Virus record (IMG/VR): IMGVR_UViG_3300026274_000001
Direction: 5' to 3' (one strand)
From: a virus
Lineage: Duplodnaviria > Caudoviricetes
Length of the DNA stretch: 64,000 nucleotides
The notes beneath the pieces are model-generated. The model saw only the letters and a program-made list of their open reading frames with translations, was not told the origin of the DNA and did no database searches. The position numbers were made by a program, and so were the translations under genes. Each line of letters begins with the position of its first letter. Within the stretch, counting starts at the first letter, position 1. Below, in pieces: positions 3,069 through 13,273 of this stretch.

Positions 3069-3269
3069 ATGAATTTCCCAGCTCCAAATCCCAACCCTGA
3101 TATGACCGAAGTAATCGTCAGGGCTGAAGAATGGTTAAAGCATCGAATCGTAGGTGAAATGGATTCGAGTGCTGAAGTAATGATATTTGGGCCATTGATA
3201 CAAGCCATTTATGGGAAAGATATCTTTGATAGACTTAATGCAATCGAGATCAAGAGTAAGGCTAAGTGA
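3069..3269 (+). CDS. hypothetical protein
   Basis: ORF abutting previous gene. Confidence 0.6.
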   Translation: MNFPAPNPNPDMTEVIVRAEEWLKHRIVGEMDSSAEVMIFGPLIQAIYGKDIFDRLNAIEIKSKAK

Positions 3270-3750
3270 TCTGTATGTATTTCTTAATCTTAGCCATGCT
3301 TGCTGAATCGTTCAATACACCCTGAAGGCCAAAGTGTAAGGGTGATGGTAGCTGGTCAAGCTTGAACCAATCTGCTCGTTCTGTTTCCCAATCCAAACGC
3401 GGTGTAAACTCATTATCAACTATAGCCAAATAGTTGAAATATCGAAATGTGCCTGACTTGAATATGAATAACGGTTCAAGCTCAAAGTGTCCATGATACC
3501 CCGCCTCTTCGCTTACTTCCCTGCGTACTGCAACGGTAGGTGTCTCGTTTTCATCAATAGCCCCTCCCCAAGTACCCCACGTATGCGGTTGTTCAACCTG
3601 TACCGAACGTAGGGGAAGTAAGATTCGCCCCGTATCTCTAGCTAGTATGATACAACCAGCACCAGCACGACCCCAGAAGCCTGTGTCATCGAGAGCTTTT
3701 GCATGTTCTTCGTCGTTCTCGTACAAATTTACAATTTGATGATATCGCAT
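3262..3750 (-). CDS. Nudix hydrolase
   Basis: Nudix box GGAIDENETPTVAVRREVSEEAG. Confidence 0.9.
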   Translation of the reverse strand: MRYHQIVNLYENDEEHAKALDDTGFWGRAGAGCIILARDTGRILLPLRSVQVEQPHTWGTWGGAIDENETPTVAVRREVSEEAGYHGHFELEPLFIFKSGTFRYFNYLAIVDNEFTPRLDWETERADWFKLDQLPSPLHFGLQGVLNDSASMAKIKKYIQIT

Positions 3751-4756: not shown

Positions 4757-5042
4757 CGACTTGTAATATTAATTTAGGAGAATATCTTCAAAGACATCCT
4801 TCCAGGCAGAATTAGACACTCCTATACGGAGTGGAAAGAGGTTTACCTTGAGAAACCGATTCAATATCGTGGTGAAACTTTGTGTCATGAAATGATATGG
4901 CACAGAGAGCATCGAATGATTGATAATTGCACAGTTACGATAGATGAATATTGGAATGTAGCCGATAAGTTGGCAGAACTTGAACCAGTATGTATTATGA
5001 GAAATTTGCAATTCATCTAAAACGAGTGTATAAATAAGATTA

Positions 5043-5065
5043 CAGTAAGCGATAGACGCGAACTG
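5043..5065 (+). promoter_or_regulatory. GATAGAC-loop 5' UTR hairpin, copy 1
   Basis: CAGT-AA-GC-GATAGAC-GC-GA-ACTG; loop ends 27 nt before ATG 5085. Confidence 0.6.
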
Positions 5066-5084
5066 ACAAATTAACATAGGAACT

Positions 5085-5492
5085 ATGTTAGCCATGACAA
5101 ACCTCTCCCGCTGGAACGCAGACTACGATCGATTCATCAATTCTTACAACGGCAAATCGCTGTTGAAAAGCCACGACTTGGCCGAAGTTGGTATTTGGTT
5201 GGTTCGCCCTGAAGAATGTGATCAAGGTGACGGTCGTCGCATCTACGGCCAACCTGATGTTGGCACTTTCGAAGGTGTACTTGAAGACATCATCCGTTAC
5301 GTCGTTCGCAAATCTGAATTCATCAACAATGCCGGCTGCGGTACCATCAGTAAAGTAAAAGAAAAAACTCAACACGATTTGGCATTGCCAGTCTATAATG
5401 CGCAAATAGCAGATAAGAAACGTCTGCTCCGTATTAGAGACGAGCTTAGCCAAATGCTAGTTGATTTGGATGAGCGTATATCAAAACTGTAG
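5085..5492 (+). CDS. hypothetical protein, paralog A
   Basis: SD AGGAAC; shares YxRFINxYxG..HxLxExGIW..QPDxGxFEG with next gene; coiled-coil C-terminus. Confidence 0.8.
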   Translation: MLAMTNLSRWNADYDRFINSYNGKSLLKSHDLAEVGIWLVRPEECDQGDGRRIYGQPDVGTFEGVLEDIIRYVVRKSEFINNAGCGTISKVKEKTQHDLALPVYNAQIADKKRLLRIRDELSQMLVDLDERISKL

Positions 5493-5501
5493 TAACCGAT
5501 T

Positions 5502-5514
5502 GCGGATAGACCGC
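5502..5514 (+). promoter_or_regulatory. GATAGAC-loop 5' UTR hairpin, copy 2
   Basis: GCG-GATAGAC-CGC upstream of SD AGGAAT. Confidence 0.6.
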
Positions 5515-5543
5515 TTTTGTGGTAAGCATAGGAATTATGTGTA

Positions 5544-5942
5544 ATGAGTAAGTCACTAAAAGATAGTCAAAAAGACTACGAACGTTTCATTAACTGTTAT
5601 TCAGGCCGAGAATTATTGGCGACTCATTCCTTGAGTGAAACTGGTATTTGGCAAGTATTTGGTGAAGATCCAAATTGCGATATGCAAGGGTCACACGTAC
5701 AGCCAGACTTGGGATTGTTTGAGGGTAAGCTGGATGACGTTATCCGTGAAGCAGTCAGTCTTAGTAATTTTTGGCAATGGGGTAGCGGCGGTCGTATTGT
5801 GAAAAAGACTACCCCAGTAGTAAAGAAAGTAAAGACTCAAACTGAACGTATGTCAGCTGAGTATGAAGAGCTTGTAGCAATGAAGGCCGAATTAAAAGCA
5901 GCACTGGCAAAAGTTGATGCAAAAATGAATCAAATCAAATAA
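5544..5942 (+). CDS. hypothetical protein, paralog B
   Basis: clear similarity to 5085..5492. Confidence 0.8.
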   Translation: MSKSLKDSQKDYERFINCYSGRELLATHSLSETGIWQVFGEDPNCDMQGSHVQPDLGLFEGKLDDVIREAVSLSNFWQWGSGGRIVKKTTPVVKKVKTQTERMSAEYEELVAMKAELKAALAKVDAKMNQIK

Positions 5943-5945
5943 CAA

Positions 5946-5968
5946 CGAACGCCGATAGACGGCATTCG
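5946..5968 (+). promoter_or_regulatory. GATAGAC-loop 5' UTR hairpin, copy 3
   Basis: CGAA-C-GCC-GATAGAC-GGC-A-TTCG; loop ends 27 nt before ATG 5988. Confidence 0.65.
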
Positions 5969-5987
5969 ATTTAACTTCATAGGAACT

Positions 5988-7100
5988 ATGATGACAAACA
6001 TTATTACCCCAGCATCGCAACGAACCGACACAATCAACTTCATCCTGCGTGGGCAACCACAGCACATCGCGCATGAAAAGACCTTTCACGAAGCTGCTAA
6101 GCAATGCGGCACGCTGAACCTCATTTACGGTTGCGCAAACCAACCGCGCGATGATGCAGATCCCTTTTACCAAGAAGAACGTATTGAAGTCGGTAAGCGT
6201 ATTACTGCCAACTTCAAGCAAAAATACAACTGCGACGTGAATTTCCTGTCGGTCGAGAACAGCATCTACAACAATACCCAATGGGGTAACTGGGTTGCAG
6301 AAGCTGTTGCACCGTATGCACACGGTAAGGTAAAGCTGATCGGCCACAACAAGGACGATACTAGCTTCTATCTCAACATGTTCCCGCAATGGGGCGAACC
6401 TATCCTGCTGCCGCAATTCGACGTTCTGGATGCGAGCACAATTCGCAACCTGTACTTCAGCAAGAAAAACAACCTCGACTTCTTCCGTCATGTTTGCCCT
6501 GATGCGACTATCAGCTTCTTGGAAGAGTTCATGCACACTGAGGCTTACGACTACATTGTCGAAGAAGCCAACTACATCAAGAAGTACCGAGAACAAACCC
6601 GTGCTGGTCAAAAGTATGCACCTACGTTCCAAACGGGCGACGCAATTGTTATCAAGTCTAATCACGTTCTGATGATTCAACGCCGTTCCCAACCAGGCAA
6701 GGATCTGTGGGCATTCCCTGGTGGCTTCCTGCGTTCAGAAGATGAAATGGTCAATGGTGAATTGAAGAAGGCTGATCTTGACGTTGTCGATACTGCTCTT
6801 CGTGAACTTACGGAAGAAACTCGTATCAAGCTTCCGCCAGCACTGTTGCGTGGTAGCATTCGTGCTGAAAAGCGCTTTATGCACCCGAAGCGTTCCCGTC
6901 GTGGTCGCGTGACTACCACTGCGCAATTGATCGTTTTAGATGATTCGGAATATAAGGGTTTCCCGAAGGTCAAGGCGCGCGATGATGCAAAGCAAGCTGA
7001 ATGGGTTCACATGAACGACGTAAAGCGTCGTGAGTCCTTCGAGGACCACTTCGATATGCTGCTCTGGGCAAGGGCAATGACTTCTGACGTTCGACTTTAA
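5988..7100 (+). CDS. nadM: bifunctional NMN adenylyltransferase / ADP-ribose pyrophosphatase (NadM-Nudix)
   Basis: N-terminal RGQPQHIAH (HIGH-like), LIGHNKDDTSFYLNMFPQW, DASTIR; C-terminal WAFPGGF..TALRELTEET, DDAKQAEW, FEDHFDM. Confidence 0.92.
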   Translation: MMTNIITPASQRTDTINFILRGQPQHIAHEKTFHEAAKQCGTLNLIYGCANQPRDDADPFYQEERIEVGKRITANFKQKYNCDVNFLSVENSIYNNTQWGNWVAEAVAPYAHGKVKLIGHNKDDTSFYLNMFPQWGEPILLPQFDVLDASTIRNLYFSKKNNLDFFRHVCPDATISFLEEFMHTEAYDYIVEEANYIKKYREQTRAGQKYAPTFQTGDAIVIKSNHVLMIQRRSQPGKDLWAFPGGFLRSEDEMVNGELKKADLDVVDTALRELTEETRIKLPPALLRGSIRAEKRFMHPKRSRRGRVTTTAQLIVLDDSEYKGFPKVKARDDAKQAEWVHMNDVKRRESFEDHFDMLLWARAMTSDVRL

Positions 7101-7170
7101 AGCTTGCGAATGATCCCACACCCTGATAGATGGATCAACTGTGGATCGGGGATCGCAAAGAGGAGACAAA

Positions 7171-7350
7171 ATGGATGATTTACAATACATGACACGTCGC
7201 AACAATCTGCTGAGTGAGCGAGAACGTGCGCAACATGATCTTGATCGTATTAATCGCCGTATCGAAGAATTGGATACCGAAAAACGCGTTCAAGATAGGC
7301 AAGAAATGGTTATTTTGATGAAGAACACAAACCTCGCTCAAATTAAGTAA
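7171..7350 (+). CDS. small coiled-coil protein
   Basis: SD GAGGAG before ATG 7171. Confidence 0.65.
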   Translation: MDDLQYMTRRNNLLSERERAQHDLDRINRRIEELDTEKRVQDRQEMVILMKNTNLAQIK

Positions 7351-7400
7351 ATTTTGCGAACTGGCACAGAAATGTTATAACCATATCTACTGTAATTACT

Positions 7401-7808
7401 ATGGTAGATATGGATGCAATGAAGAATAACAAACTCGTATTGGATGAAGACCTGAAGGAAGTGTTGCAGTATCCGCAAGTTCGTAAAGTAACTGAGCGCT
7501 TGCAACAACGGTTAGAAGCCAAAGCAGAACGTAAAGGAAAAACCATGAAGGGCACAGTTGCAGAACTTAAAAAGATGCTCAACAACATGAATGACCAAGA
7601 TCTAGTTGTTACGCCTTTTGGGCGAGAGCGAGATCAAGTCACTCAAGCTGTACCAACAATTATTGAAGTGCTTGCTTTTGGTAAGAAGCGTGTCTTTAAT
7701 GAAGAACTGTTGGAATGGAATGGCGATCCGCGTGAATATGGATATCCTGACATGAAAGCCCTACAGGCTGACGGTGGTAAAATTGTAAAGGCAATTGTAT
7801 TACGATGA
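7401..7808 (+). CDS. hypothetical protein
   Basis: ORF after AT-rich promoter-like region. Confidence 0.7.
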   Translation: MVDMDAMKNNKLVLDEDLKEVLQYPQVRKVTERLQQRLEAKAERKGKTMKGTVAELKKMLNNMNDQDLVVTPFGRERDQVTQAVPTIIEVLAFGKKRVFNEELLEWNGDPREYGYPDMKALQADGGKIVKAIVLR

Positions 7809-8230
7809 AAGTAAAAACATTAGAACAGCATCGCCAAGCACTTGAAGATCTCAGTAACGGGCGAGACACTGGTCATCGATTGTTTGCAGTCTTTGATGCA
7901 AGAATTAAGAATATATCACTTGAAGAAGCACTTGAACGAACGGCAGTCGCGGTTAAGAATTCAGTAGACCTTTTGGTGCGTGATATTAAAGATGGTGTTG
8001 ATACCGCACTAATGATGGACATACTTGACGATGCTCGCAATTTATTGGTTGACTTAGCAAAAGAATATAATAAGCCACCCGTCGAATTTAAATTAGCACC
8101 TTGTAAAAATATTCCGCTTTCAGAAGAAGCAAAAAGATTGCAACACAACTATGTGGCCCAGAAAACGCAACGGGCTGATCGATTGAAAGACCTAGTTGCA
8201 AAGAATAGAGTTGGTTTTACTATGCTTTAA
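7805..8230 (+). CDS. hypothetical protein
   Basis: ATGA overlap with previous gene. Confidence 0.7.
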   Translation: MKVKTLEQHRQALEDLSNGRDTGHRLFAVFDARIKNISLEEALERTAVAVKNSVDLLVRDIKDGVDTALMMDILDDARNLLVDLAKEYNKPPVEFKLAPCKNIPLSEEAKRLQHNYVAQKTQRADRLKDLVAKNRVGFTML

Positions 8231-8243
8231 CCATATTTGGTGC

Positions 8244-8279
8244 TTGCACCAAATACTGGCAATGTTATAATTTGCCAGT
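8244..8279 (+). promoter_or_regulatory. sigma70-like promoter of NAMPT with inverted repeat around -10
   Basis: TTGCAC-16-TATAAT; ACTGGCAA-9-TTGCCAGT. Confidence 0.65.
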
Positions 8280-8295
8280 GTAGTATTAAACCCAA

Positions 8296-8319
8296 GTCCT
8301 CGAGATAGACTTGAGGCAC
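8296..8319 (+). promoter_or_regulatory. GATAGAC-loop 5' UTR hairpin, copy 4
   Basis: GT-CCTCGA-GATAGAC-TTGAGG-C-AC; loop ends 32 nt before ATG 8343. Confidence 0.65.
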
Positions 8320-8342
8320 ATTAACTTGATAAGGAATTTATC

Positions 8343-9857
8343 ATGATCACAACAAAACTTCTCAACGACAACTTCTGCTTGGCTGCAGATGCCTATAAGT
8401 TCATGCACTATGCTCAGCTCCCTAAGGGTCTGAAGTTTGTGCAGAGCAGCGTGGTTCCACGCAAACCCAACGCGCATACTGATATGCTGGTAACTGCCGG
8501 TATTCAATACCTTGCAAAGTACCTTGCAAGCGTGCGTATCGACGAACATGATGTCGATGAATTGGTGTTAGAAGCAGGACAACAAGGCTACGAAGTTAAC
8601 GAAGCTAGCTGGCGTGATATGATTGCTCGTTTCGGTGGTCGTTTGCCCCTTCGTATTGAAGCATTGCCTGACGGTACGGTCGTTCGCCCGAACACCGCGG
8701 TCCTGACTATTGTCAATACCGACCCAGCATTTTACTGGTTGCCCTCGTATGTTGAAACAGTCGTCCAACGTATTATCTGGAAGTTTATGACTGTTGCTTC
8801 GATCAGCCGCTCGCTTTACAGCTTGCTGATGCAATATGCAATCAAGACTGGTGCAAATGTGGATATGGTTGTATATCAACTCCACAACTTTGGCGATCGC
8901 GGTGCTGACGCCGACGAAGCTGCACAATGGGCGGGAATCGCCCACGCAATGGTGTTTTCTGGCTCAGACAATTCCCGCGCCAATCCAAATATCAAGCGTC
9001 TTTACAACACTAAGAAGGCCTACACCTCATCTGTCGATGCAACTGAACATAGCACGATGTGCGCTAATTCTGATGCCAAGACGAAGAATGACTACGGCGC
9101 TGCTGTAATGCTTGTTGAGCGTCTGGAAGAAGCGGTTCGTCGTGCAGGTCGTGGTATTGGTGTTCCCGTGGTTAGCGGCGTAGTTGATACCTACAACCCA
9201 TATCGTTTTATCCGTGACTACTTGGGTTCTCCCGAACTGAAGGCGCGTATCGAAGCGTGTGGTCGTGCAGGCGGTAAGCTTGTTCTGCGTCCTGACAGCG
9301 GTGTTCCAGAAATCGAAGTGCCTAAGATCCTCGAGATTGCAGGTGAAGTATTTGGTTTCTCGGTCAACTCGCTGGGTTACAAGGAACTGGTTCCATATAT
9401 CGGCGTGCTGCAAGGCGACGGTATTAATCAAGAATCAGTACCACGTATTTTGGTAGCAACTTGCGATGTAGCTCGCTGGTCGTTTGGTAGCTTCCTGTTT
9501 GGTATGGGTGGTGGTTTGGTGCACGAAGCTGGACGTGATGAATTCTCATTCTCACAAAAGGCAACGGCTATGACGTTCAATTCGGACCCAAGCGTTAATG
9601 GTGACTGGATTGATCTGTTGAAGGAACCTATTACCGACACCAAGAAGAAGTCACTCACTGGATACATTATCAATGTGAAGGACGCTGATGGCACTATTCG
9701 CAGTATCAATCGCAAGAACTGGTACGGTGAAGCTATCGTGTACAACACTGTTGTTTTTGAAAACGGTGAAGCATTTGTTGATGACGTCAACTTTGACGAT
9801 GTTAAGGCTCGTGCTGTTGAAGGCATTAGCAAGACGGAACTGAAGCTGGCTGCATAA
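8343..9857 (+). CDS. nadV: nicotinamide phosphoribosyltransferase (NAMPT/NadV)
   Basis: DAYKFMH, LHNFGDRG, ATEHS, VVDTYN, LRPDSG, LQGDGI, FGMGGGL motifs. Confidence 0.92.
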   Translation: MITTKLLNDNFCLAADAYKFMHYAQLPKGLKFVQSSVVPRKPNAHTDMLVTAGIQYLAKYLASVRIDEHDVDELVLEAGQQGYEVNEASWRDMIARFGGRLPLRIEALPDGTVVRPNTAVLTIVNTDPAFYWLPSYVETVVQRIIWKFMTVASISRSLYSLLMQYAIKTGANVDMVVYQLHNFGDRGADADEAAQWAGIAHAMVFSGSDNSRANPNIKRLYNTKKAYTSSVDATEHSTMCANSDAKTKNDYGAAVMLVERLEEAVRRAGRGIGVPVVSGVVDTYNPYRFIRDYLGSPELKARIEACGRAGGKLVLRPDSGVPEIEVPKILEIAGEVFGFSVNSLGYKELVPYIGVLQGDGINQESVPRILVATCDVARWSFGSFLFGMGGGLVHEAGRDEFSFSQKATAMTFNSDPSVNGDWIDLLKEPITDTKKKSLTGYIINVKDADGTIRSINRKNWYGEAIVYNTVVFENGEAFVDDVNFDDVKARAVEGISKTELKLAA

Positions 9858-9878
9858 GCAGCAATGCGGGATGTAAAA

Positions 9879-9904
9879 CGATGAGCCCCAATTGGGGCTC
9901 ATCG
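9879..9904. terminator. perfect 26-bp palindrome / likely terminator
   Basis: CGATGAGCCCCAATTGGGGCTCATCG after NAMPT stop; no clear U-tract. Confidence 0.6.
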
Positions 9905-13042: not shown

Positions 13043-13073
13043 CTCCCCCTTCCTGTACAATGGCTATCAAAGG

Positions 13074-13260
13074 ATTCATGGAGGTTATTAACTTTGCCTA
13101 ATGACTACTTGAGATCAATTACAGAAAGCTACGGAACCCAGATAGAACTTGTGATTGTGGCTCCTTCACGATTCTTCTTCTAGAGGAATTCATGGAGGTT
13201 TCTATCATAAAAAGGGACATCTGGGACCCTTCACGGATGACATCAAACCCAGATAGAACT
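13074..13260. repeat. intergenic shuffled direct repeats (A-B-C-A-C-B)
   Basis: ATTCATGGAGGTT x2, AACCCAGATAGAACT x2, CCTTCACG x2. Confidence 0.75.
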
Positions 13261-13273
13261 CTCGATACTCAAC

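Follow-up and report, generated by a model that had tools for sequence, protein, structure and literature searches.

The window analyzed here is the whole 64,000-nt stretch of IMG/VR record IMGVR_UViG_3300026274_000001, a virus of the Caudoviricetes, and it contains a nicotinamide adenine dinucleotide (NAD) salvage locus in which four genes each follow a small two-hairpin mRNA leader. Depletion of NAD+ is among the main defenses of bacteria against phages, and NAMPT together with NadM (NARP2) is a known phage counter-measure. The four regulated genes lie on the + strand. Genes 1 and 2 (5085..5492 and 5544..5942) are paralogues of unknown function assigned to family phrog_33851. Gene 3 (5988..7100) encodes a bifunctional NadM-Nudix protein (nicotinamide mononucleotide (NMN) adenylyltransferase / ADP-ribose pyrophosphatase), and gene 4 (8343..9857) encodes NAMPT (NadV). 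These assignments agree with a preliminary description of the locus, which had listed two paralogous unknowns, NadM-Nudix and NAMPT.

The heptamer GATAGAC occurs on the + strand at 5051, 5505, 5954 and 8304, the positions given in the preliminary description, and every one is flanked by covarying inverted repeats. Start codons follow the motif by 27, 32, 27 and 32 nt in copies 1–4, within the range of about 27–32 nt first reported. ViennaRNA folds pair the terminal G and C of the motif and leave an AUAGA pentaloop. Hairpin 1 of copy 1 (5043..5065; loop GATAGAC at 5051–5057) begins 6 nt 3′ of a TATAAATA box and consists of 4 bp, a 2x2 purine internal loop, 2 bp and the G-C-closed pentaloop (36.6 bits; minimum free energy z -4.48). 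Copy 2 (5496..5522; loop 5505–5511) starts 1 nt past the stop codons of the upstream paralogue and has 3 bp, a U.U/U.U internal loop and a weak outer stem. Copy 3 (5946..5968; loop 5954–5960) starts 4 nt past the stop of the second paralogue and has 4 bp, a C.A mismatch and 3 bp (55.5 bits; z -4.92). A natural variant, C5953T, retains the pairing as U.G. Copy 4 (8296..8319; loop 8304–8310) has a stem of 6–8 bp (56.8 bits; z -2.11). With both hairpins included, copies 1, 3 and 4 fold as a two-hairpin structure with z = -4.5, -4.9 and -2.1, and copy 2 is the weakest (fold z -1.0; 28.5 bits, E 6e-4). The differing arms pair as had been proposed. The loop had been described as an invariant GATAGAC; the invariance is borne out, and the more accurate description is an AUAGA pentaloop with a G-C closing pair, which is A-U in one copy of Synechococcus phage B23.

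Each copy continues into a second hairpin that carries the Shine-Dalgarno (SD) sequence in its loop. This hairpin spans 5072..5090 in copy 1 (core 5075–5087), with GGAA in the loop and the ATG at 5085 within the 3′ arm. It spans 5978..5990 in copy 3, overlapping the NadM-Nudix start at 5988, and 8327..8343 in copy 4, where the loop is GGAAU and the last base is the A of the NAMPT start codon (8343). In copy 2 (5526..5540) the ATG of the hairpin opens a four-codon mini-open reading frame (mini-ORF) that overlaps the real start at 5544. The mini-ORF (5538–5552) reads ATG TGT AAT GAG TAA across the real start ATGAGT, and its counterpart in a relative (L011, 5550–5562) is a bare start-stop, ATG TAG; the two may be a coupling device. 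The sequence of the SD hairpin is CAUAG-GAA-CUAUG in copies 1–3 and GAUAA-GGAAU-UUAUC in copy 4, and in relatives of copy 4 a paired A/T insertion (GAUAAA...UUUAUC) preserves the stem. The preliminary description had noted a similar SD after each motif. The SD does recur in the copies, and it is in fact presented by a second covarying hairpin. Under a lenient rule, 12 of the 112 + strand genes in the window have some SD-in-loop hairpin, and the NAD-locus four are the strongest.

The leader is specific to these four sites in the window. A covariance model run unfiltered on both strands found them alone (E 5e-10 to 6e-4), with nothing further at E < 1. The bare heptamer is at the chance level for a 7-mer, with 6 found and 5.25 expected, and no hairpin accompanies the remaining two occurrences, one within coding sequence (3228) and one on the minus strand (51374). 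The structured element itself is far from a chance occurrence. A fifth copy had been suggested at GATAGAT (7125..7131, + strand). This site is not a member: the model does not detect it, the motif falls outside any hairpin loop (fold z -0.36), and it is not kept in relatives. A 15-mer (AACCCAGATAGAACT) that occurs twice at 13126–13270, with GATAGAA at 13141 and 13252, lies in the long intergenic gap 13043–13273 and is a separate repeat that lacks the hairpin context of the NAD leader.

The leader is widespread in phages. No close cultured relative of the window phage was found by megablast or blastn against INPHARED. Metagenomic relatives of the window NadM form a graded series, 96% to 65% identical to it, and lie on jumbo-phage contigs that reach 524 kb; GATAGAC is retained before NadM and NAMPT in every one, with stems that differ yet pair. 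A profile scan of IMG/VR yielded 80 loci with NadM of 39–76% identity, and the sense-strand motif is present in 80/80. After six context-free matches were dropped, 143 distinct phage copies remained, with 58 before NAMPT, 55 before NadM and 29 before small operon genes. These 29 genes stand first in their operons and fall into three families: phrog_33851, phrog_12218-like and phrog_37251-like. The IMG/VR contig L070 carries a leader (5128–5314) ahead of a truncated ORF that encodes something other than NadM or NAMPT, and has two weaker model matches upstream at 798–854 and 1244–1303. In Ruegeria phage RpAliso both genes, NadM and NAMPT, are preceded by the leader. In Synechococcus phage B23, GAUAGAC stands upstream of NAMPT and AAUAGAU upstream of NadM, and the NadM copy retains AUAGA while its closing pair changes from G-C to A-U. 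Genome-wide specificity was measured on two complete related jumbo-phage genomes. The model matches only the NadM and NAMPT sites in the 524-kb genome and only three NAD-locus sites in the 425-kb genome. One extra match in a relative (G004, 39626) has another loop, lies 5′ of a secreted Ala/Lys-rich protein and is not a member. The leader therefore marks a small regulon, standing almost only before nadM, nadV/NAMPT and small co-operonic genes, which upholds the earlier statement that it marks NAD-rebuilding genes.

The element is peculiar neither to the window phage nor to phages, and is common 5′ of bacterial nadV and nadM. A bacterial scan that took one genome per species returned 80 NadM loci, and 55 of the 80 have a GAUAGAC hairpin on the sense strand. 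The bacterial copies, 47 before nadV and 9 before nadM, are intergenic, between nadM and nadV. The carriers include most Psychrobacter, Alkanindiges, Burkholderia and Paraburkholderia strains, Aestuariispira, a Thiothrix and several metagenome-assembled genomes; Pseudoalteromonas luteoviolacea has the leader at both genes. The Psychrobacter locus is not a prophage because housekeeping genes lie on its flanks. In this genus a third covarying hairpin of variable length stands between the AUAGA hairpin and the SD hairpin (L106–L183; for example, L106 4114–4186); it is G+C-rich and has no U-tract. A search of five whole bacterial genomes with a model of hairpin 1 only gave no convincing extra targets; this search was filtered and missed a known Psychrobacter copy. 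The extra matches are in coding sequence or lack an SD hairpin, and look like chance.

Comparison of the homologues shows that the leader is a structured sense-strand mRNA element of about 50–60 nt. It is arranged as an A-rich single strand, hairpin 1, a short G-poor linker and hairpin 2. In hairpin 1 the stem varies and is often interrupted by an internal loop, and the AUAGA pentaloop, closed by G-C, is invariant. Hairpin 2 has a variable AU-rich stem of 4–7 bp; its loop carries the SD GGA, and it extends as far as the start codon. The linker is 5–12 nt in phage copies and is almost free of G, and the spacing from loop to start is constant across them. The only strongly conserved columns are GAUAGAC, the SD (GGA and the following U) and AUG. 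Base pairing was scored in a gapless alignment of hairpin 1 from the 143 phage copies. Pairing is 68.9% of cells, compared to 41.8% in shuffled alignments and 28–37% with slid partners; covariation scores 0.64, compared to 0.18 in shuffles. The pair that flanks the loop is paired in 116 of 117 distinct copies and takes all six pair types, and pairs three to five are frequently replaced by an internal loop. The covariance model of the leader realigned 150 copies, in which hairpin 2 is 82% paired and AU, GC, CG and UA interchange at its central pairs. The bacterial set, 45 distinct copies, gave an independent result of 74.8% paired compared to 47.5%, with covariation of 0.65 compared to 0.18. 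Over all sets, covariation is 0.53–0.65, compared to 0.16–0.18 in shuffled and 0.06–0.20 in slid controls. G-U outnumbers A-C by 89 to 12 in well-paired columns, and GATAGAC is found in the sense and antisense orientations 150 and 21 times in phage loci and 74 and 12 times in bacterial loci. Covariation, G-U excess and strand bias combined identify a sense-strand RNA structure and exclude a DNA palindrome. These data confirm the stems in both phage and bacterial homologues and uphold the proposal of an RNA-level element with an invariant loop on covarying stems.

Pairing partners for the loop were also sought. A pseudoknot between the loop GAUAG and the 3′ arm of hairpin 2 is plausible in the clade of the window and was rejected for the wider family, where the arms vary freely. 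Pairing of the loop GAC with GUC in the first codons is available only where the protein begins Met-Ser, which excludes the NAMPT copies, and was likewise rejected. No conserved complement to the AUAGA loop was found in the linker, SD hairpin or first codons of the wider family.

Hairpins with different loops occupy the equivalent spot before both NadM and NAMPT in other clades. The loop is G(A/U)UGUA in Eneladusvirus-like phages (L100, L194, L195). The syntenic phage RSP15 (L001) lacks the AUAGA loop and has A(G/C)GGA, and BcepSauron (L198) has GC-AAGA-GC, preceded by CCGUAGUA. These variant-loop hairpins are possibly sister motifs. The NARP2-type phages S13, phiM7, YB07, RB16 and ValKK3 (L101–L105) have no hairpin 1. 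In YB07, RB16, S13 and ValKK3, and less clearly in phiM7, the NadM/NAMPT SD lies in the loop of a short hairpin that abuts the start codon.

Promoter-like boxes precede most of the phage leaders at a fixed distance. In the window, the T4-late-like TATAAATA box (5029..5036, + strand) lies just 5′ of copy 1, and an extended -10-like box (TGTTATAAT; 8263..8271, + strand) lies in an inverted repeat 5′ of copy 4; both are putative promoters called by pattern. A box of the TATAAATA type stands at a fixed distance in most relatives. In most phage copies at a first gene or NadM, an xTAAATA box ends 11–14 nt before GATAGAC, and in phage NAMPT copies a TATACT/TATAAT box ends 16 nt before it. By these distances, the predicted transcript would begin close to the base of hairpin 1, which falls at about +1 to +3. 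Copy 1 of the window fits this spacing and copy 4 fits it more loosely; copies 2 and 3 are intercistronic, 1–4 nt past the upstream stop. At 8231–8285 and 7355–7400, a TGTTATAA(T) -10-like box, set within the inverted repeat CTGGCAA...TTGCCAG, lies 3′ of a terminator-like hairpin (ATTTGGTGC...GCACCAAAT).

Soil metatranscriptome contigs from four studies extend from about 4350/4820 to 9868 at ~10x the depth of the flanks. They end at 9868–9871, where depth drops about tenfold, beside a palindromic terminator-like hairpin 3′ of NAMPT (9879..9904, strand not assigned). These contigs give a weak hint that eight genes form one highly represented unit, although they show neither starts, ends nor strand, and the point where they stop adjoins a palindrome. 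In one low-depth run the contigs break near copies 3 and 4, which is not interpretable. Peat metagenomes contain only a fraction of the sampled words of the window (0.38 and 0.32). Just upstream of the NAD locus lies a divergent gene for a stand-alone 162-aa NUDIX protein (3262–3750, - strand). It adjoins a gene for an NAD-dependent epimerase/dehydratase (1579–2649), a layout that is kept in relatives.

The leader is probably a control element of the NAD pathway that phages use to undo NAD-depleting immunity. Three functions had been offered in the preliminary description: a translational operator, a boxB-like antitermination site and a nuclease site. Computation does not distinguish among them, and the operator is the best fit. 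A sequence-specific hairpin stands directly upstream of the SD, within the 30S footprint, separated from the SD hairpin by the 5–12 nt linker. We favor a translational operator read by a protein tied to NadV/NadM, with NadV/NAMPT as the preferred reader, and hold this reading at somewhat less than an even chance. In this reading, hairpin 2 would insulate the ribosome-binding site and keep it open, and the factor recognizing the AUAGA loop would bind 5–12 nt upstream, inside the region required by the 30S subunit, and so set the frequency of ribosome initiation. That factor would most likely be a protein of the regulon itself, with NadV/NAMPT favored. Its occupancy by substrate or product (nicotinamide, phosphoribosyl pyrophosphate (PRPP), NMN, NAD+) would couple synthesis to need, and in the phage the PRPP cost of NAD rebuilding would be limited until required. 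The overproduction of NAD+ and the PRPP cost are noted in the NARP2 paper (10.1101/2024.02.11.579819).

The distribution of the leader narrows the choice of reader. The factor must be self-contained, since the leader has accompanied its genes between phyla and into phages whose hosts are unrelated. In those genomes it marks nothing else, which leaves three kinds of reader: a regulon product, a cell component that is ubiquitous, or a small molecule. Of the two enzymes, NadV is the stronger autogenous candidate: the leader always precedes it, whereas in Psychrobacter the hairpin comes after NadM. The phrog_33851 paralogues (5085–5942) were considered as RNA-binding partners and rejected, as the family is absent from most leader-carrying genomes and lacks a structural match. 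Their AlphaFold model (pLDDT 84) has a small alpha/beta domain and a long C-terminal helix, and returned no significant structural match in the PDB, AFDB clusters or Atlas.

Several points weigh against a protein-read operator. The loop is invariant, and covariation cannot show its contacts. A simple steric model that depends on linear distance is harder to hold given the variable extra hairpin of Psychrobacter. In most phage copies the predicted transcript starts at hairpin 1, an arrangement that would suit a role in stability equally well. Finally, the variant-loop hairpins of the other clades may be unrelated elements.

A broader idea that we entertain tentatively is that the leader senses the state of the NAD pathway, either as a very small new riboswitch class or as a site like the iron-responsive element (IRE), with NAMPT/NadM or a ubiquitous NAD-binding enzyme of the host as its reader. 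If this is true, bacteria and NARP2 phages would switch on NAD rebuilding when NAD+ falls or breakdown products rise, and expression of the phage anti-defense would be triggered by the host's own immune attack.

A riboswitch, in which a metabolite of the NAD pathway (NAD+, NMN, nicotinamide, ADP-ribose or PRPP) would bind directly to the RNA without a protein and alter the accessibility of the SD hairpin, is unlikely. One structured leader tied to one pathway across proteobacterial classes and many phages is the classic signature of a riboswitch, and its covariation is strong. The insertion of a variable hairpin between conserved parts is tolerated, as in many aptamers, and an RNA that needs no trans-acting protein would suit horizontal spread. 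However, the invariant nucleotides are all in an apical loop of 5–7 nt, and the internal loop and linker are unconserved. There is no conserved pseudoknot or kissing partner, and the pairing of the loop with the 3′ arm of hairpin 2 fails outside the clade of the window. Many bacteria have a single copy, which makes a two-loop dimer of the guanidine-II kind unlikely, and no match to NAD+-I, NAD+-II or another Rfam family was found. We prefer a protein-read operator to an aptamer because invariance is only apical, the loop has no conserved pairing partner and the loops of other clades at the same spot differ. An invariance confined to the apical loop is typical of loop-reading proteins, and the differing loops fit a co-evolving partner better than a fixed ligand.

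Less probable still is an element that acts at the mRNA 5′ end or in processing, in which hairpin 1 blocks 5′-end-dependent decay or marks a cleavage site at which a protected 5′ end would be produced, and hairpin 2 is simply an efficient ribosome-binding site. The box spacings in phages, by which hairpin 1 has its base at about +1 to +3, fit this explanation, as do the intercistronic copies of the window that begin 1–4 nt after an upstream stop. A protective hairpin, however, needs no invariant loop kept from cyanophage to Burkholderia, and a general stability device is not expected only at the NAD-salvage genes of 400–500 kb genomes. The intergenic position of the bacterial copies, between nadM and nadV, also argues against it.

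A signal that acts on transcription, whether a boxB/N-like or put-like antitermination site or an attenuator, is very improbable. The lambda and P22 boxB-N systems share with the leader a short stem and a pentaloop near promoters, which in their case is read by a phage factor. The leader has such a hairpin near phage promoter-like boxes, and the Psychrobacter insertion hairpin is G+C-rich. The pentaloops of boxB are GNRA-like and begin with G (GAAAA, GACAA), and they work with boxA and downstream terminators and have no link to an SD, whereas AUAGA is not GNRA-like and stands at the SD. No boxA or terminator is visible between the element and the start, where no systematic search was made, and the Psychrobacter insert has no U-tract. 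The second hairpin contains the SD and abuts the AUG, which points to translation. The boxB proposal fits poorly on two counts, the loop that is not GNRA-like and the position of the element against the SD.

The NrtR operator is a 21-bp palindrome with a GT-N7-AC core that precedes nadM-nadV in some bacteria (PMC2330246). A DNA operator of this kind for NrtR or another dimeric transcription factor, an inverted repeat with a 7-bp spacer, shares the 7-nt spacing and is scarcely credible, already contradicted here by arms that differ among the four sites of one genome around an invariant asymmetric centre (the reverse of a dimer operator), by a centre-flanking pair that is U-A in only 3/117 copies, and by the G-U excess and sense-strand orientation.

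The two-hairpin leader is apparently undescribed. A search of Rfam 15, as had been proposed, found no family that matches it at the gathering score or at E ≤ 5. Literature searches on the motif sequence, NARP2, nadV/nadM riboswitches and NAMPT RNA motifs found no description, and the NARP2 paper (10.1101/2024.02.11.579819) does not mention leaders. The element is a new orphan RNA motif with unusually clean covariation, one that Rfam lacks and that the nadM/nadV genes of phages and bacteria share by the hundreds. The regulation of NARP2 is undescribed, and the ~55-nt leader gives a concrete and easily testable handle on it. Cultured systems in which it could be studied include Ruegeria pomeroyi with phage RpAliso, Synechococcus phage B23, Psychrobacter, Pseudoalteromonas luteoviolacea and Burkholderia.

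The known RNAs closest in subject are the NAD+-I (nadA motif) and NAD+-II (pnuC motif) riboswitches, which are also cis-acting leaders on NAD-metabolism genes; NAD+-II likewise involves the SD. They regulate nadA and pnuC, whereas the leader described here precedes nadM and nadV. Their conserved nucleotides are in internal loops or a pseudoknot, and those of the NAD leader are only in the apical pentaloop. The NAD leader does not match the Rfam model of NAD+-I, and its conservation is confined to the apical loop and SD rather than to internal bulges of tandem stems. It does not match the NAD+-II model either, and no conserved loop complement for an SD-sequestering pseudoknot was found. If the RNA alone does bind a metabolite, it would be a third NAD-related riboswitch class and among the smallest known. 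Guanidine-II (mini-ykkC) is closest in form, with two small covarying hairpins, a short variable linker and the second hairpin at the SD. Both guanidine-II loops have the same ACGR and kiss, whereas the conserved AUAGA is in hairpin 1 only, and loop 1 (GAUAGAC) and loop 2 (GGA(N)(Y)U) are not complementary.

The Escherichia coli thrS operator, through which threonyl-tRNA synthetase autoregulates, and the T4/RB69 gene 43 operator are the nearest parallels to the operator that we favor. In each, a hairpin with a specifically read loop stands immediately 5′ of the SD, control of 30S binding would be expected, and the system is self-contained, with the gene product as regulator, as proposed here. 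The thrS loops mimic the tRNA anticodon loop; AUAGA/GAUAGAC lacks U33 and is no such mimic. The thrS and gene 43 operators control one gene each, whereas the NAD leader marks 2–4 genes per genome and has spread far more widely, over phyla and phages, and its partner is only a candidate. The IRE, bound by the iron regulatory protein (IRP), resembles the leader in its invariant apical loop (CAGUGN) on a variable stem with an internal loop or bulge and in its presence in the 5′ leaders of several genes of one pathway, and it offers the logic of a metabolic (aconitase-type) enzyme as an RNA-binding sensor. It differs in being eukaryotic and in its loop sequence, and for the NAD leader the binding of an enzyme is only proposed. 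PyrR of the pyr leaders is a precedent for the role proposed for NadV/NAMPT, as a protein of phosphoribosyltransferase (PRTase) fold that binds a leader hairpin in response to PRPP or nucleotides. PyrR acts by transcription attenuation and its binding loop is longer and of unrelated sequence; NAMPT is a type II and not a type I PRTase. If NAMPT or NadM is the partner of the NAD leader, it would give bacteria and phages an equivalent of the RNA regulators built on enzymes, of which IRP and PyrR are examples.

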